A DNA stretch of 63,296 nt from an uncultured Candidatus Saccharibacteria bacterium (GTDB lineage Bacteria; Patescibacteriota; Doudnabacteria; UBA920). The translations under genes and the position numbers were made by a program. The stretch lies in NCBI GenBank assembly GCA_964348935.1, contig CAYGEJ010000006.1, positions 1-63,296 on the forward strand, read 5' to 3'. The first letter of the stretch is position 1. Each line of letters opens with the position of its first letter. Below are positions 26,026-47,761 of the stretch, piece by piece. The notes under the pieces were generated by a model that worked only from the letters and a program-made list of their open reading frames with translations, did not search any database and had not been told where the DNA came from.

Positions 26026-26054
26026 TTGACAAAAGGTCTAAAAAAGCGTATAAT
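26026..26054 (+). promoter_or_regulatory. consensus sigma70 promoter
   Basis: TTGACA-17-TATAAT. Confidence 0.85.
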
Positions 26055-26060
26055 TATTAG

Positions 26061-26266
26061 TTAATATAGGCCTTTTGTGCCTGTATTATTTTATGCACAT
26101 TTCATAGTCTGTAGGAGGACTTATATTTACAGAGAGTTAGTTATTATACTTCCTTGGAAATTTGGCCGTGTTGTGGTTATCTATAAATATGGCCGGTTTT
26201 CCCAGGAAGTATATGGGAAAGTTGTTTAAATCCTCCGGTTAACCCGGCAAAGAAAGGAGTAAGGTT
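26061..26266 (+). promoter_or_regulatory. long structured 5' leader
   Basis: Helices TCTGTA/TACAGA (26108-26133) and TATACTTCCT/AGGAAGTATA (26145-26213, with further inner pairing). Confidence 0.55.
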
Positions 26267-27283
26267 ATGAAAACCCTACCCTCCGTTCTCTTCACGCTGA
26301 CTTTTGCTGTCAGCTCTCTTTTGGTCCAGGTCTTGACTCCTGTGCCCGCTCTTCCGTCTTTTCCCGTGCCGTCGACGTCGACGCAGGCCTGTGGGCCGAT
26401 TATCGATGTGGTGGTTGGTTCCTCCGGGCTCCTGCTTAACACTTGTGATGTAGGCGGGGTTGCATCTGCCCGTTTTAACGGAAGTTTTCGAGGCGGTTAT
26501 GTGGATGCGGTCATACGAAACACAGGCGGTGATGTGGTAGTTCTGATGAATGACGGCCGTATCATAAAGAGCCTTAACGGTGTGGTAAGGGAATGGGAGG
26601 TGGCACAAGCCTCTGCGATCATTTCTGCTACCGGCGACACAGTTACAACAGTGCGACAAAACGCATTCTCCCAAACTGAGTATCGTTTGTACGAAGATGG
26701 AGGCGTTTATTCGCGCAAAATTATGGGCGACGGCGTGTTTCCTTTTACTTGCACTCAGACTTTTGAGGTTAAGGGAGATAAGTATTGTCTTGATCGCAAC
26801 AATGCAAGGATATACCGTGCGTCGGCAGGCTTCTTGTCTTCTGCGAGACCGGCAAACGCGACGCCATACCTTGAACTTGAAGGGCTTGTGTTTGCTAGGC
26901 CATACAAAGAAGGCTTCCTTCTTTTGGTCAGGCCACTATCGGTGTGCCCAGATGAAGCGACAAAGGTTCCCGACTCTGCAGTGTTTTGCTATTTTGCAGG
27001 ACAATGTAAGGAGGCGACTCCTTCACAGCTTCTTTATGTTTCCGGCGCCAAGCCGAACGTTCAGGTGCTGGTCACGGGCTTAAAGGTGGTGTTTTCTTCT
27101 ACATTCACTGTCGCCGGCGACAATGTTTATGTGGTGGAAACTGATTGGGATAAGAATGAGGAGTTTCAGGGTGACTATGTCACCAAGTTGAATCTGTTAA
27201 CGGGGAAGAAAAACTCCTTCCTTTCCCGCGAAGAACTTTCCCGACAGTACGGAGTGGAGTCCCCGTCTATTTGGATCAACTAA
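26267..27283 (+). CDS. orphan secreted beta-rich protein (possibly beta-propeller), GC-rich
   Basis: SD AAGGAG 26254-26259; signal-peptide-like N-terminus; Pro/Ser/Thr linker; short beta strands. Confidence 0.75.
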   Translation: MKTLPSVLFTLTFAVSSLLVQVLTPVPALPSFPVPSTSTQACGPIIDVVVGSSGLLLNTCDVGGVASARFNGSFRGGYVDAVIRNTGGDVVVLMNDGRIIKSLNGVVREWEVAQASAIISATGDTVTTVRQNAFSQTEYRLYEDGGVYSRKIMGDGVFPFTCTQTFEVKGDKYCLDRNNARIYRASAGFLSSARPANATPYLELEGLVFARPYKEGFLLLVRPLSVCPDEATKVPDSAVFCYFAGQCKEATPSQLLYVSGAKPNVQVLVTGLKVVFSSTFTVAGDNVYVVETDWDKNEEFQGDYVTKLNLLTGKKNSFLSREELSRQYGVESPSIWIN

Positions 27284-37944: not shown

Positions 37945-40056
37945 TTATTTATTTTTTCTTGCTTTTCCAACTAACTTGTTAATTTTCTTAATCTCTTCTA
38001 TTTTATCTCTCAGGCGGGCGGCAAGTTCAAATTCTAGGTTTTGTGCAGCAAGATCCATTTGCTCTTCTAGCTCTGACATATAGAATTTAATTTCTTCTAC
38101 TGTCATTTTACTTGGGTCTACTTTACGTTCTTCTTGGTCTTCTATTTCTTTCTTGCTCCCTGCTAGGCGTGAGTCCGCAATAGCTTTTTGAATACCTTTA
38201 GGGGTTATGCCGTGTTCTTTATTGTAAGCTTTTTGAATTTCTCTACGACGATTGGTTTCTTCTATGGCGCGTTCCATGCTTCCAGTTATTTTGTCTGCAT
38301 ATAAAACTACATGTCCTTCAAGGTGGCGAGCTGCACGACCCATCATTTGCATAAAGAAAGTTTCGCTACGTAAAAAACCTTCTTTATCAGCATCTAAAAT
38401 AGCAACAAGAGAAACTTCTGGTAAGTCCAACCCTTCTCTAAGTAAGTTAATTCCAATTAAAACATCATACACTCCGAGTCTTAAATCTCGCAGGGTCTCC
38501 AAACGGTCGAAAGTGTCTACGTCGCTATGCAGATATTGAACTTTAACCCCTTCTTCTTTTAAGTATTCGGTTAATTCTTCAGCCATGCGTTTGGTAAGCG
38601 TGGCAACAAGGACACGTTGGTGTTTTTTTACTGTTTCTTGTATTTGTTCAATTAGGTCGTCTACTTGGTTTTTAATTGGCTTAATTTTTATTTCTGGGTC
38701 AATAAGTCCAGTTGGGCGAATAATTTGCTCGACAATAGTTGGTGGATTTAATGGTTTTGCTTTTAGGTTGGTAAGGGCAGTTAGGAAGTCTTCTTGCTCG
38801 GTTTCGGATCTTTTAGATTTAGAAATAAACTTGGTATCTTTTTGAGTTAGGCTTCTTTGAATTTCAAATTCTGCTGGTGTTGCAGAGACAAAAATAGCTT
38901 GGTTTATTTTTTTCTCAAATTCTTCAAAGCGTAATGGACGGTTGTCTAGTGCGCTGGGGAGTCTAAACCCATAATCTACTAAAGTTGTTTTGCGGGACTT
39001 GTCTCCTTCATACATAGCTCCGATTTGTGGGATAGTTTGATGGGATTCGTCTATGAATAACAAAAAACCATCTGGAAAGTAGTCGACTAGTGTGGATGGT
39101 GAACTACCAGGTTCGCGACCTTCTATAACTCTGGAATAGTTTTCTATTCCACTTACGAACCCTGTATTTGTAAGCATTTCTAAATCAAAATTAACTCTTT
39201 GTTCAAGTCTGGCTGCTTCTAGGATTTTGTTTTGGAATTTTAATTCGCGAATCCTGTCTCCAAGTTCTTGTCGGATTTCTTCCGAGGCTTTTTTTAAGCG
39301 ATCTTCAGGGGTGACGAAATGCTTAGCAGGAAAAATTGTGAATTCTTCCAGCTCCTCCAATTTATGTCCACTGACCGCATCGAGGCGTTCTATTTTTTCT
39401 AAGCGATCGCCAAAAAAATCCATGCGAATTATAGTGTCCTCGGAAGAAAGAATAATTTCTATAACGTCTCCTTGTACGCGGTAAGTAGCGCGTTGGAGTT
39501 CAGTGTCATTTCTGTGGAATTGGAGGTCAATAAGTCTTCTTAATAATTTGTCGCGTTTAAATTTTTTCCCTTTTTGAATATGGAGTGCGAGTTCTAGGTA
39601 GTTAGCTGGATTACCAAGACCATAAATACAAGAAACACTGGCTACTATTATCACATCTTTTCTAGAAAGCAGGCTCTGTGTTGCAGCATTTCTTAAGCGG
39701 TCTATCTCCTCATTTATTTGAGTTTCTTTTTCTATAAAGGTGTCACTGCGTGGAATATAAGCTTCTGGTTGGTAGTAGTCGTAGTAGGAAACAAAATAAT
39801 GTACAGCATTATCTGGAAAAAATTCTTGAAATTCGCTTGCAAGTTGCGCGGCAAGGGTTTTGTTGTGAGAAATAATTAAAGTAGGTTTTTGAATTTTCTG
39901 AATTACGTTAGCCATAGTAAAAGTCTTGCCACTACCGGTAACTCCAAGAAGAGTTTGGTAACGGTTTTTTGCCTTTAGGCTTTTAAGCAGGCCTTCTATG
40001 GCTTTTGGTTGGTCTCCAGCCGGCTGGAATTTAGAATTTAAATTGAACTTTGACAT
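37945..40056 (-). CDS. uvrB: excinuclease ABC subunit B
   Basis: LLGVTGSGKT, YYDYYQPEAY, IDESH, GINLLREGLDLPEV, C-terminal UVR domain; start set at MSKF (40056). Confidence 0.97.
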   Translation of the reverse strand: MSKFNLNSKFQPAGDQPKAIEGLLKSLKAKNRYQTLLGVTGSGKTFTMANVIQKIQKPTLIISHNKTLAAQLASEFQEFFPDNAVHYFVSYYDYYQPEAYIPRSDTFIEKETQINEEIDRLRNAATQSLLSRKDVIIVASVSCIYGLGNPANYLELALHIQKGKKFKRDKLLRRLIDLQFHRNDTELQRATYRVQGDVIEIILSSEDTIIRMDFFGDRLEKIERLDAVSGHKLEELEEFTIFPAKHFVTPEDRLKKASEEIRQELGDRIRELKFQNKILEAARLEQRVNFDLEMLTNTGFVSGIENYSRVIEGREPGSSPSTLVDYFPDGFLLFIDESHQTIPQIGAMYEGDKSRKTTLVDYGFRLPSALDNRPLRFEEFEKKINQAIFVSATPAEFEIQRSLTQKDTKFISKSKRSETEQEDFLTALTNLKAKPLNPPTIVEQIIRPTGLIDPEIKIKPIKNQVDDLIEQIQETVKKHQRVLVATLTKRMAEELTEYLKEEGVKVQYLHSDVDTFDRLETLRDLRLGVYDVLIGINLLREGLDLPEVSLVAILDADKEGFLRSETFFMQMMGRAARHLEGHVVLYADKITGSMERAIEETNRRREIQKAYNKEHGITPKGIQKAIADSRLAGSKKEIEDQEERKVDPSKMTVEEIKFYMSELEEQMDLAAQNLEFELAARLRDKIEEIKKINKLVGKARKNK

Positions 40057-40117
40057 GTATTTAGTATAAAGTAGAATGTGAAAAGTATAAAGCGAAAACA
40101 AGTTGTAAGTTGTAAGC

Positions 40118-40546
40118 AAAAAAAGAAAAACCCGAACATTTTGAGCGGTTGCTCTAGTGTTCGGGGGTCGAAATACGACCGTAAGGGAGGCTCTCTCGTG
40201 CTATTGCACGGAGATTAAAATTCGAGAGGGGGTGGATATAGCGGATTATCCTCCTCCTCCGAAGTGAAGGGTTGCGCATATGTGCATCCCCGCGCACGTA
40301 GGTGCAAGGTCCTTCACTATTCTAAATCCTCCGATTTATTTTTACAGGGGTAAGCCTTGGTGTCATGGTGTAGAGGTGCTACGACCAAGGCTTTCCCCGT
40401 GTCAGCGCGGGCGCAGCCCCTCGCTGAATTTGTATATTGAATTATTGCTAGGCAACTTGTCTAGTGTGTAAGTTGGTCGCTGGTCAGCGCCTTCCTATTG
40501 CACAGGGGTTGCCTGGACTCTTGGGTTCGGGTAACGAACTTTGAGT
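40118..40546 (-). ncRNA. candidate ~430-nt structured non-coding RNA of unrecognised family
   Basis: Own promoter, about ten stem-loops, terminal hairpin plus U-tract, GC-richer than flanks, no convincing ORF. Confidence 0.7.
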
Positions 40547-40552
40547 AAAGTG

Positions 40553-40581
40553 AGTTTACTTGGTTTTTGGGCTAAAGTCAA
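40553..40581 (-). promoter_or_regulatory. sigma70 promoter driving the candidate ncRNA
   Basis: TTGACT-17-TAAACT on the minus strand; divergent from and overlapping the ruvA promoter region (TG-N-TAAAAT 40595-40603). Confidence 0.75.
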
Positions 40582-40609
40582 TGAATGAAATATATGTTAA
40601 AATAAGAAT

Positions 40610-41167
40610 ATGATCGCATTTATTAAAGGTAGAATTATAGAAAAAGGATTAGGGTATTTATTAGTAGAGAATCAAGGTTTGGGTTATAAGGTTTTTGTGA
40701 CACCTGATGCTTTAGATAATCCAATTGGTAGCGAAGTTCGTTTTTTTACTTATCACAAAGTCTCTGAAGACGGTCAAGCGCTATTTGGTTTGCCAGATTT
40801 TGATGCTTTAAAGTTTTTTGAATTATTAATTACGGTTTCAGGAGTGGGACCTAAGGCGGCGCTGTCTATATTGTCTTCGGCTCCGGTCGAAAGCGTTAAG
40901 CAAGCCATTGCCAGTCAAGATGCCGGAGCCTTTAAGCGTATTTCCGGGATCGGTACCAAAACGGCTGAAAAAATTATTGTTGAGTTAAAAAATAAAATAG
41001 TTGCAAGTTCGTCAGTCGAGCAGTACGGAGGTAGTGACGTGTTTGATGCCTTAAGTGCTTTGGGTTATGGGCAAAAAGAAGTCAGAGAAGTAATTAATAA
41101 GCTGGATAGTAGAAAGACTGAAGCTGAACAATTAAAACAAGCTTTGCAAATGTTGGGAAAGAAATAA
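40610..41167 (+). CDS. ruvA: Holliday junction branch migration protein RuvA
   Basis: MIAFIKG, GLGYKVF, HhH motifs VSGVGPKAAL and ISGIGTKTAEKI, ALSALGY. Confidence 0.96.
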   Translation: MIAFIKGRIIEKGLGYLLVENQGLGYKVFVTPDALDNPIGSEVRFFTYHKVSEDGQALFGLPDFDALKFFELLITVSGVGPKAALSILSSAPVESVKQAIASQDAGAFKRISGIGTKTAEKIIVELKNKIVASSSVEQYGGSDVFDALSALGYGQKEVREVINKLDSRKTEAEQLKQALQMLGKK

Positions 41168-41170
41168 TTT

Positions 41171-42223
41171 ATGGAGTTAGTCCAAGAAGTAAACCAAGAG
41201 TGGTTTAGTAATTTTGTCGCCACTAATTCTGGTGGCAGTTTTTTACAGAGTTGGGAATGGGGTGATTGGCAGGTTCGCTTAGGGCGAACAGTTTTTAGAT
41301 TTAAGATCTTAGATAATAGTGGGCTGCAAATCGCATCGGTTCAGCTAGTTAAAATGTTATTGCCTTTGGGACAATTTTATCTTTATTCTCCATATGGGCC
41401 GGTTTGGGCTAATAATTTCAAATTTCAAATTTCAAATTTTCAAACAATTTTAAATGAATTAATTTCTAAATTTCCAAACGCAGTATTTATTCGTATCGAA
41501 CCGAAGGGTTTAGATCTTGTCACTAGTAACTTGTCACTAGTAACTAAATCTAACAACATTCAGCCTGGAAAAACTTTAGTTATAGATCTTACCAAAACAG
41601 AGGAGCAGTTACTTAGCGAGATGCATCATAAAACCCGCTACAATATTAAAGTCGCCCAAAAGCATGGGGTGGAAATTCAAGATGAGTTTACAATTACAAA
41701 CGGGCACGGGTTATTTTTTGACGAAGCTTTAAAACTTATTTCGGAAACGGCCAACAGGCAAGGGTTTAAAACTTTTACTCCCGAGTATTATAAAAAAATG
41801 GTAGACTTTTTTACCCTGCACCATAGGGAAGAAATTAAACTTCATATTTACAAAGCAATATTTTCCGCCAACGGCGGATCCTCCTCTGGTGGACATAATA
41901 CAATATTAGCCACAGCTTTTATGTTGGATTTTGGTAACACTAGAACGTTTTTATTTGGTGGGTCTGGGGAAAATAATAAGAATGTTATGGCGCCTTACTT
42001 GTTGCATTGGAAGGCCATACAAGATGCTAAAACAGTAGGATTAACTAATTATGACTTTTGGGGTATAGAGACATCCAGTGGAGAAACTCCGGGGTTTGTT
42101 AGGTTTAAGCTGGGTTTTGGTGGTAGGGAAGTGATTTATGGTGGAGCTTATGATGTAGTTGTAAACGCATTTATTTACAAATTATATCAACTAGTACGTA
42201 AAATAAATAAAATTATTCGTTAG
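41171..42223 (+). CDS. FemAB/FemX-family lipid II peptidyltransferase
   Basis: FLQSWEWG, HHKTRYNIKVAQK, YLLHWKAI..YDFWG, RFKLGFGG. Confidence 0.88.
   Translation: MELVQEVNQEWFSNFVATNSGGSFLQSWEWGDWQVRLGRTVFRFKILDNSGLQIASVQLVKMLLPLGQFYLYSPYGPVWANNFKFQISNFQTILNELISKFPNAVFIRIEPKGLDLVTSNLSLVTKSNNIQPGKTLVIDLTKTEEQLLSEMHHKTRYNIKVAQKHGVEIQDEFTITNGHGLFFDEALKLISETANRQGFKTFTPEYYKKMVDFFTLHHREEIKLHIYKAIFSANGGSSSGGHNTILATAFMLDFGNTRTFLFGGSGENNKNVMAPYLLHWKAIQDAKTVGLTNYDFWGIETSSGETPGFVRFKLGFGGREVIYGGAYDVVVNAFIYKLYQLVRKINKIIR
41864..41893. repeat. 30-nt double-hairpin REP-like element inserted in frame in FemAB
   Basis: TCCGCC-AAC-GGCGGA followed by the degenerate copy TCCTCC-TCT-GGTGGA; encodes SANGGSSSGG. 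Confidence 0.6.
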
Positions 42224-47515: not shown

Positions 47516-47544
47516 TTGACAAAATTTCAATAGGTACGTACAAT
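47516..47544 (+). promoter_or_regulatory. rpoBC promoter
   Basis: TTGACA-17-TACAAT, followed by a ~210-nt leader with hairpins. Confidence 0.75.
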
Positions 47545-47761
47545 CCAAATATGCACAATTACATTAGCCTATAAGCCTTTTAAGGGTTCGGCCTTTTTTG
47601 CGTTTGCGAAAAAGGTAATATTTTGTGTCCTTTTATCATGAATATTGGTAGATGAAGGATATGAAATATTAGAGCGCTTGTCCCAACTCTCAAGCTTTTG
47701 GTCTTTTGCTTAACTATTATGCCAAATTTTGGTGCGATTTGGCTGAAAGTTTACGTATTTA

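Follow-up and report, generated by a model that had tools for sequence, protein, structure and literature searches.

Adjacency to tRNA genes is said to be typical of GOLLD and ROOL, two large structured RNAs of bacteria, and a sponge RNA, 3'ETS-leuZ, reportedly comes from the glyW-cysT-leuZ operon of E. coli. The Patescibacteria, or Candidate Phyla Radiation (CPR), have tiny genomes with little non-coding DNA, and to our knowledge almost no RNA biology has been described in this phylum. Here we analyse a contig of 63,296 nt from an uncultured Candidatus Saccharibacteria bacterium, assigned by GTDB to the Doudnabacteria lineage UBA920 (assembly GCA_964348935.1, contig CAYGEJ010000006.1; 'the window' denotes this whole stretch), in which the gap between ruvA and uvrB holds a structured RNA gene of ~430 nt. 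The relatives of its UvrB protein likewise assign the window to Candidatus Doudnabacteria. We read it, with a probability of about 0.55, as a separate, stable, structured and trans-acting non-coding RNA (ncRNA) gene derived from the trailer of a tRNA operon. Our results establish or strongly indicate that the gene is a separate, non-coding and highly folded unit, with a ~310-nt core common to close strains, a link to a tRNA operon and no counterpart among curated families.

A separately transcribed and highly folded RNA between ruvA and uvrB

A promoter scan returned the same -35 and -10 boxes that an earlier, sequence-only reading of the locus had proposed, with 9/12 matches (coordinates of this and the other features are collected in Table 1). 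The promoter stands back to back with that of ruvA, and relatives carry TTGACA(AAA)-N-TAnnnT at the matching position beside ruvA. At the other end the predicted fold contains the proposed terminator with its U-rich tail; the terminator scan that we used allows loops of at most 8 nt, and the larger loop here is the sole reason why it made no call. The terminator stem is identical in a related strain (X5, see below), whereas the spacer downstream of it, toward uvrB, is strongly altered.

Both neighbours appear to be transcribed on their own account. The -10 box of uvrB, TATACT, lies 7 nt ahead of the ATG at 40056, and ruvA also has promoter-like boxes in the position expected of a leaderless mRNA, so that uvrB and ruvA look like leaderless mRNAs with their own predicted promoters and the RNA unit between them is separate. 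Shine-Dalgarno sites precede only 6/49 open reading frames (ORFs) of the window, and many starts fall 6-8 nt past a TAnnnT -10-like box, which would imply that leaderless mRNAs dominate in this genome (e.g. 40056-40091 for uvrB and 40585-40612 for ruvA). The proposal of an independently transcribed, multi-helix ncRNA thus agrees with the predicted promoter and terminator of the unit and with the promoter boxes of its neighbours.

These data also bear on the possibility that the RNA is a cis-acting leader or attenuator of uvrB, in which read-through from the promoter at 40581 under some condition (e.g. DNA damage) would control the gene. The RNA does lie directly upstream of uvrB on the shared strand, with its terminator 62 nt before the start codon and with the same orientation in all relatives, but uvrB has its own -35 and -10 boxes in the leaderless layout typical of the genome, and relatives keep a separate uvrB promoter past the terminator. 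Moreover, close relatives lack the element or have something else in its place, the unit of others includes tRNA genes, Rfam models of riboswitches and T-boxes do not match at the RNA locus, and the minimum free energy (MFE) structure offers no obvious antiterminator alternative. We therefore consider a leader function improbable.

The RNA is far more stably folded than expected. The minus strand of 40118-40550 has an MFE of -154.9 kcal/mol, whereas 100 dinucleotide shuffles give -110.9 +/- 5.3 kcal/mol (z = -8.35; 0/100 shuffles as stable), and a second control with 24 shuffles gave z = -5.9. Every helix listed in the sequence-only reading is present in the MFE structure at its proposed position, including a long-range GGAGG/CCUCC pair that had been put forward as a possibility. 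In this model the core (40428-40118, ~310 nt) consists of two hairpins, a linker carrying GGAGG, a 147-nt domain with three sub-helices, a further hairpin and the terminator; pairing of CCUCC (40190-40186) with GGAGG would close the 147-nt domain.

GC content is also elevated, as had been claimed: it is 0.49-0.55 across 40150-40524 and 0.29-0.40 in the flanks, and the RNA region is the sole GC-rich intergenic gap within the window. The 9-mer GUGCAAUAG does occur twice in the RNA region and nowhere else in the window; we judge this to be chance, as a repeated 9-mer in 430 nt is expected about once in three cases and the second copy is not kept in X5. A role as a CsrA sponge was considered and rejected, since the nine GGA triplets in 430 nt compare with ~6 expected and are not concentrated in loops.

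Variation among near-identical strains and a link to a tRNA operon

Similar sequence was found in only five public runs, all of them DNA, and no further runs held near-identical variants. A scan of metagenomes that used the UvrB N-terminus as anchor yielded relatives of at most 62% identity and none closer. One sequence, X3, is identical to the window RNA. A second, X4, is a single 330-nt contig (2.9x depth) which spans 40166-40428 and differs by 10 substitutions and one 7-nt insertion, and a third, X5, is a contig of 2.8 kb.

None of the 10 substitutions in X4 breaks a pair in its own fold. That at 40394 (A>U) replaces an A.A mismatch by a U-A pair in the long hairpin 40344..40402; those at 40358 (A>G), 40274 (C>U, in the P1 domain) and 40198 give G.U pairs; and those at 40229, 40227 and 40226 jointly make a continuous 10-bp helix out of a bulged one in the hairpin 40222..40262. 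In all, four of the 10 substitutions change a G-C or A-U pair to G-U. The insertion falls exactly in the apical loop of the hairpin 40403..40426. In X5 the terminator and the adjacent hairpin are unchanged, and the hairpin 40214-40192 has an altered loop and an inserted U that pairs with the formerly bulged A, leaving a stem of 9 bp. The P1 domain has a different 3' strand in X5; the partner strand could not be recovered from the data. The variation in X4 and X5 is thus compatible with the structure and partly improves it, without proving it. The compatible changes suggest selection on structure in the window RNA, with p ~0.01 by our rough estimate under a transitions-only null.

Homology between X4 and the window ends at 40428. 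Upstream of this point X4 reads AGGGUUCGAAUCCCUUAGCCCCUGCCA-AAC, that is, the T arm, acceptor strand and CCA of a tRNA, and the core begins 3 nt after the CCA. As the X4 contig enters the 3' end of a tRNA at 40428, the 5' 120 nt of the window RNA must be replaced there by a tRNA gene, which leaves a conserved core of ~310 nt (40428-40118). The ~430 nt are not one conserved unit, given that the 5' 120 nt are exchanged in a relative that is 93-96% identical. With its core directly behind a tRNA gene in X4, the unit is best seen as a tRNA-operon trailer (3' external spacer) that has turned into a stand-alone gene.

Known RNA families and coding potential

The search against Rfam 15 that the sequence-only reading had called for gave no match anywhere in the window at gathering thresholds, and nothing on the RNA strand across 39950-40750 at E <= 10 with relaxed filters. 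The single other hit, to RAGATH-30 at 40596-40643, scored 20 bits (E = 0.3) where the threshold is 59.5, lies over the start of ruvA and was dismissed as chance. ARAGORN found no tRNA or tmRNA in the whole window. Rfam was also run on 17 + 9 loci of relatives, nine of them at E <= 5.

A highly diverged representative of a known family (RNase P RNA, tmRNA, 6S, SRP, GOLLD, ROOL, OLE, HEARO or raiA), beyond the reach of Rfam in CPR, would have the right size, GC richness and multi-domain fold if it belonged with RNase P RNA, tmRNA or the large ornate RNAs, and the tRNA adjacency seen in relatives is, as noted above, reportedly shared by GOLLD and ROOL. The individual families fare poorly, in line with the earlier opinion that the RNA is none of RNase P RNA, tmRNA, SRP RNA or 6S RNA. 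In RNase P RNA (RF00010/RF00011) the P4 pseudoknot of CR-I GAGGAAAGUCC and CR-V ACAGAAnCCGGCUUA encloses the RNA body; here no covariance model matches, there is no P4-type long-range helix around the body, and the sole AAAGCC/GGCUUA helix (40393-40352) encloses only 22 nt. The 5' and 3' ends of tmRNA form a tRNA-like domain (acceptor stem, T arm with a 7-nt loop, CCA) and the molecule carries a tag frame; ARAGORN and Rfam are negative, the 3' end is a terminator, and the loop of GGUCG-UAUUU-CGACC has 5 nt. 6S RNA is a long irregular duplex with a central bubble and SRP RNA has the helix 8 motif; Rfam is negative for both, and short domains follow one another in the fold. No model of GOLLD, ROOL, OLE, HEARO or raiA matches in the window or in the 17 + 9 loci of relatives. 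Since the RNA is missing in close relatives, which would be impossible for an essential RNA, and since no family matched even at the relaxed E-values, this explanation is largely refuted and we give it next to no weight.

Nor does the region look protein-coding, as the sequence-only reading had also held. The longest frames are 63 aa on the plus strand and 47 and 23 aa on the minus strand; none has a Pfam match, and indels of 7, 4 and 1 nt in relatives break the longer frames on both strands. Gene calls in the source contigs place no ORF over the RNA region and hence offer no route to further homologs there.

Interchange of RNAs in the ruvA-uvrB slot

The order FemAB-ruvA-gap-uvrB is conserved in other Doudnabacteria, with a gap (hereafter the slot) of 20 to ~1100 nt. 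In at least 16 lineages a TTGACAAAA promoter beside ruvA is followed by 265-640 nt of GC-rich RNA and, before uvrB, by a terminator of hairpin and U-run, and the RNAs are always in the orientation of uvrB. All 16 slot units fold better than shuffles (z from -4.2 to -12.3). Their contents differ: besides three recurrent types (A, B and C) and singletons, there are tRNAs, tRNA-like genes with abnormal anticodon loops, an ORF of insertion sequence (IS) type with a helix-turn-helix (HTH), and empty slots. tRNAs lie within the slot unit at six loci (L006, L013, L014, L162, L172 and L173). Only tRNAs were recognised by Rfam in the relatives' slots. Searches by nhmmer, based on the window RNA or on profiles of types A and B, found matches only to self or to the same type, and no homology across types was detected. 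The window RNA thus counts among several structured RNAs, unrelated to one another, that alternate in the slot, and the DNA-repair neighbourhood to which the sequence-only reading had drawn attention looks incidental, the gap being a variable slot with unrelated contents in relatives.

Type B provides the strongest evidence on structure. Its members, with no Rfam match, show 35 double-sided pairs, compared with 16 +/- 2.9 in shuffles (0/500 reach 35) and 5-8 in slid controls, and share highly conserved blocks (CCCCGGGUGGCG...CGCCACCCG and CUUGGGUGYCACACUCC). On this comparison type B is clearly a well-supported structured RNA, and its covariation indicates that the slot does encode functional folded RNAs. 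By analogy, a function of the window RNA becomes more plausible, without being demonstrated.

Several further features of the slot were observed. The two type C RNAs (~640 nt) are <60% alike overall and share an 80-nt block that is 85% identical (GCCGAAAAGAUGGUCGGGAAGUACCCGCCGCGGCU...GUUAUGCCGGAGUA), with no Rfam match. For the non-canonical tRNA-like genes ARAGORN reports a 4-base or 2-base 'anticodon', with the loop enlarged or shrunken, and the second cloverleaf of L006 has a ~50-nt insertion in its D region. L003, whose UvrB is 84% identical, has a 116-aa ORF with HTH domains of transposase type (HTH_32/HTH_29/HTH_Tnp_1) behind a structured 5' region. A colinear resemblance of this region to the 5' module of the window RNA (GGCAACCC..GCUGAC and UUCAAUAUAC) had a score reached by 16/500 shuffles and is not claimed, and the 28 IMG/VR matches to the type A motif GAGGARATTGGGCRCRC all fall in coding sequence (EEIGR-type) and are ascribed to chance.

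Five relatives have a decayed copy of uvrB codons 1 to 10-12 (M-x-K-F-x-L-K-S-K-F...) 80-110 nt before the true start; no such copy is present in the window. In three of them (L007, L009 and L176) the motif CGCTAAAGCT comes after the copy, and it lies in a hairpin loop in L007 and L009. These copies suggest repeated insertion or recombination at the uvrB 5' end in the five relatives.

This turnover raises the question of whether the window RNA is a neutral or decaying remnant, the slot being a recombination hot spot near tRNAs where transcribed debris of tRNA operons or mobile elements persists without function. Among genomes whose UvrB is 75-87% identical the slot changes from RNAs to tRNAs, tRNA-like genes, an IS-type ORF or nothing; a tRNA takes the place of the 5' module in the near-identical strain X4; the decayed uvrB copies point to repeated rearrangement; and the window RNA lacks double-sided covariation. 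Debris, however, would not be expected to combine a z of -8 with a GC content of 0.50-0.55 against 0.38, 12-17 points above that of the genome, nor would it explain why all 16 slot units are strongly folded, why the X4 and X5 variation is compatible with the structure and in part improves it, why the sister type B covaries strongly, or why promoters and terminators are intact throughout. A remnant is a possibility that we consider unlikely.

A more far-reaching interpretation, at the level of the slot as a whole, is that it is a dedicated, hypervariable 'stable-RNA slot', one conserved promoter and terminator frame within which unrelated large structured RNAs, tRNAs and tRNA-like genes interchange, nearly all of them retaining an A/U-flanked GAGG tract. 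We put this forward tentatively, as something that may well prove wrong. If true, it would mean cassette-like exchange or arms-race turnover of functional RNAs in an episymbiotic bacterium with largely leaderless mRNAs; the cargo might be, for example, nuclease decoys or ribosome- or RNase-binding RNAs, and the window RNA would belong to a new functional class set by context and architecture and not by sequence.

A shared purine tract

An A/U-flanked GAGG or GGAG tract, under a strict definition, is present in 11/16 slot units, compared with 1.5 +/- 1.2 (maximum 6) in shuffles. As a rule a strong hairpin immediately precedes it, and another domain or a tRNA comes immediately after. The type B tract forms a covarying helix with the 5' end of the transcript, and in the window and several other units the MFE structure pairs the purine tract with a downstream CCUCC-like tract. 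A consistent role as ribosome binding site was rejected, as the spacing to start codons is erratic and a tRNA follows the tract in L162, L173 and L014. A Shine-Dalgarno/anti-Shine-Dalgarno mimic found no support: CCUCC-like tracts are not significantly enriched in the last 140 nt (12/16 units, with 8.6 +/- 1.8 expected), and the type B tract is paired with the 5' end. RNase E reportedly prefers RN|WUU. The sequence of the tract fits this preference, and a processing site between modules seems as likely as a contact with the ribosome or anti-Shine-Dalgarno sequence.

The tract is also the basis on which the RNA might be taken for the mRNA of a small peptide, e.g. through the 23-codon GUG frame at 40317-40246. 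An A-rich stretch, GGAGG, a 10-nt spacer and GUG together look like a canonical ribosome binding site, and real-looking ORFs follow the tract position in L038 (54 aa) and L003 (the 116-aa HTH protein). Against this, X4 has two substitutions within the 23-codon frame, both non-synonymous, and in X5 the frame is displaced by 2 nt; the absence of any Pfam match and the inconsistent starts apply here as well, and in type B the tract serves as a helix strand. We regard a peptide as very improbable, and the RNA gene is best read, from these comparisons, as neither translated nor a uvrB leader.

The favoured reading

On the reading that we favour, a separate ncRNA gene derived from a tRNA-operon trailer, transcription would start near 40546 from a sigma-70-type promoter and end at the intrinsic terminator at 40165-40118, giving a modular RNA of a ~120-nt lineage-specific 5' module and a ~310-nt core. 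The unit would have originated as a trailer and become autonomous once the 5' module replaced the tRNA. The folded RNA may act in trans, as a scaffold for binding proteins or the ribosome or as a base-pairing RNA, with the purine tract and its CCUCC partner as candidate sites of interaction. Given how compact CPR genomes are, a strongly folded RNA of 430 nt with a strong promoter is unlikely to be idle.

A number of observations count against this interpretation. Action in trans is purely inferred, and no RNA run was found to hold the locus. Slots are empty in some close relatives, which indicates that the RNA is dispensable at that taxonomic depth. In X5, 4 nt are inserted at CCUCC, whose last C is also changed, and identity is less than 80% in the part upstream of 40260. 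Across the window, X4 and X5, 96% of cells are paired and 0 pairs have changed on both sides. No homologs were found outside strains at least ~87% identical, either by nhmmer (80 UvrB-anchored genome loci and 18 further loci) or by covariance model. Searches of 52 sources with a model of the 157-nt closed domain were empty, as were those of 14 slot loci once the filters had been switched off; the best non-self score (13.7 bits) lies outside any slot. The RNA had no blastn match in phages and plasmids, and an exact 21-mer of it is absent from IMG/VR. The suggestion that the RNA represents an unrecognised 'class' is accordingly not upheld, its homologs being confined to near-identical strains that lack double-sided compensatory change.

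If functional, the RNA would add an orphan large ncRNA to the CPR/Patescibacteria. The pattern of the slot may outweigh any single RNA, as different large folded RNAs and odd tRNA-like genes occupy one syntenic place. It offers a tractable comparative system for the birth, exchange and loss of structured RNAs and for the roles of tRNA-linked large RNAs, as for GOLLD and ROOL.

Feature coordinates and other observations

Table 1. Positions of the RNA gene, its predicted elements and neighbours in the window, and of slot contents in related loci (L numbers)
Feature	Position or locus	Strand	Basis or remark
Structured RNA gene	40546-40118	minus	~430 nt; between ruvA and uvrB
Promoter: -35 TTGACT, 17-nt spacer, -10 TAAACT	40581-40576; 40558-40553	minus	Scan
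Putative transcription start	near 40546	minus	Inferred from promoter
5' module, lineage-specific, ~120 nt	40429..40546	minus	MFE
Hairpin GUUCG/CGAAC, flanked by ACUC/GAGU	40539-40525	minus	MFE; in 5' module
Three-way element closed by AGGCAAC/GUUGCCU	40514-08/40456-50	minus	MFE; in 5' module
A/U-rich linker	40449-40429	minus	In 5' module
Hairpin CAGCG-(GGGC-UGC-GCCC)-CGCUG	40403..40426	minus	MFE; first conserved-core element
Long hairpin: ACA/UGU, GGGG/CCCC, AAGCCUUGGU/ACCAAGGCUU, inner GUAG/CUAC	40344..40402	minus	MFE
GGGG+AAGCCUUGGU/ACCAAGGCUU+CCCC helix	40398-40347	minus	MFE
A/U-rich linker with Shine-Dalgarno-like purine tract AAAAAUAAAUCGGAGGAUUUAGAAU	40319..40343; GGAGG 40332-40328	minus	Sequence
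Long-range pair GGAGG/CCUCC	40332-28/40190-86	minus	MFE
P1 domain AGUGAAGG/CCUUCACU, 1-2 small inner hairpins (UGCAC/GUGCG; AUGC/GCGY)	40263..40318; strands 40318-11/40270-63	minus	MFE, window and X4
Hairpin: GGAGGAGGAGGA run with CCACCCCCUCUC tract, inner GGAUA/UAUCC	40222..40262	minus	MFE
Hairpin UCUC-CGUGC-AAUA-GCACG-A-GAGA, then CCUCC	40186..40214; hairpin 40214-40192, CCUCC 40190-40186	minus	MFE
CGUGC/GCACG stem of that hairpin	40210-197	minus	MFE
Hairpin GGUCG-UAUUU-CGACC adjoining terminator	40166..40180	minus	MFE; invariant in X4, X5
Intrinsic terminator: CCCGAACA/UGUUCGGG, inner GAGC/GCUC, then UUUUUCUUUUUUU	40118..40165; stem 40165-31	minus	MFE
uvrB promoter-like boxes TTTATA-17-TATACT	40091-40063	minus	In spacer 40057..40117, outside RNA
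UvrB gene	37945-40056	minus	Pfam
RuvA gene	40610-41167	plus	Pfam
FemAB-family gene	41171-42223		Pfam
Slot type A	L002, L004, L176, L177
Slot type B	L015, L039, L178
Type B RNA	L015:2548-2972, L039:1608-2060, L178:931-1376		425-453 nt; no Rfam match
Slot type C	L007, L009		Shared block in L007: 2352-2422
Slot singletons	L005a, L005b, L011
Slot with canonical tRNA	L162 (Lys), L173 (Tyr), L013 (Ala)
Slot with tRNA-like genes, abnormal anticodon loops	L006, L014, L172		L006:427-506, L006:~511-640, L014:2812-2887, L172:163-238
Slot with IS-type HTH ORF	L003		L003:2546-2896
Empty slot	L001, L008, L010, L012, L174
Decayed uvrB 5' copies	L007:~2900-2960, L009:~2900-2960, L012:2895-2950, L176:~700-790
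Decayed uvrB 5' copy	L174, ~110 nt before uvrB ATG	minus

Three observations lie outside the RNA itself. The uvrB promoter region coincides in part with a direct repeat, CTTTATAC(T)TTATAC (window 40063-40100), which is also found just 5' of uvrB in L003, L009 and L014; the repeat could be an operator, or merely the promoter itself. Elsewhere in the window, two regions on the plus strand, 26026-26266 and 47516-47761, each have a near-consensus TTGACAAAA-type promoter followed by ~210 nt of untranslated sequence before the ORFs at 26267 and 47762 (an ORF of 1167 aa, then one of 1302 aa), and these stretches are candidate regulatory leaders. In another member of the Patescibacteria (L041:200-470, minus strand), a tRNA-Arg is enclosed by a 10-bp leader-trailer helix, CCCCGCACCA...UGGUGCGGGG, which looks like a stem for precursor processing.

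Comparison with known systems

The type B slot RNA shares with the window RNA its synteny and orientation, the frame of TTGACAAAA promoter and terminator, its approximate length, an A/U-flanked GAGG tract and a chain of three-way-junction domains. Neither nhmmer nor a covariance model of the window core detects homology between the two, however, and they differ in that type B covaries and in that its tract pairs with the 5' end, whereas in the window RNA the predicted partner of the tract is the 3' CCUCC.

3'ETS-leuZ resembles the window RNA in position. The core in X4 runs from 3 nt past the tRNA CCA to the operon terminator and is thus a 3' external transcribed spacer, and in other slot units, too, a single promoter and terminator serve tRNAs together with extra RNA. 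In contrast, the leuZ RNA, which is reportedly released by RNase E cleavage and base-pairs with sRNAs, is ~50 nt long and almost unstructured, whereas the window core has ~310 nt and ~100 predicted pairs, and the window itself lacks a tRNA, its RNA having a 120-nt 5' module of its own.

With GOLLD (RF01998), ROOL (RF03087), OLE, raiA and HEARO the window RNA shares a length of several hundred nucleotides, a GC-rich multi-domain fold, a promoter and terminator of its own, tRNA genes that are frequently adjacent or included, a variable 5' and more conserved 3' part, and a patchy distribution; of the two associations of GOLLD and ROOL, with tRNA genes and with phages, that with tRNAs is seen in relatives of the window RNA. 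It differs from them in matching none of their sequence or structure models, in a far narrower distribution (one species-level lineage) and, from GOLLD and ROOL, in having no match in phage, plasmid or IMG/VR collections. Taken together, the window RNA appears to be an orphan, tRNA-linked, large structured bacterial ncRNA, which resembles tRNA-spacer RNAs in its position and GOLLD and ROOL in its size and architecture.

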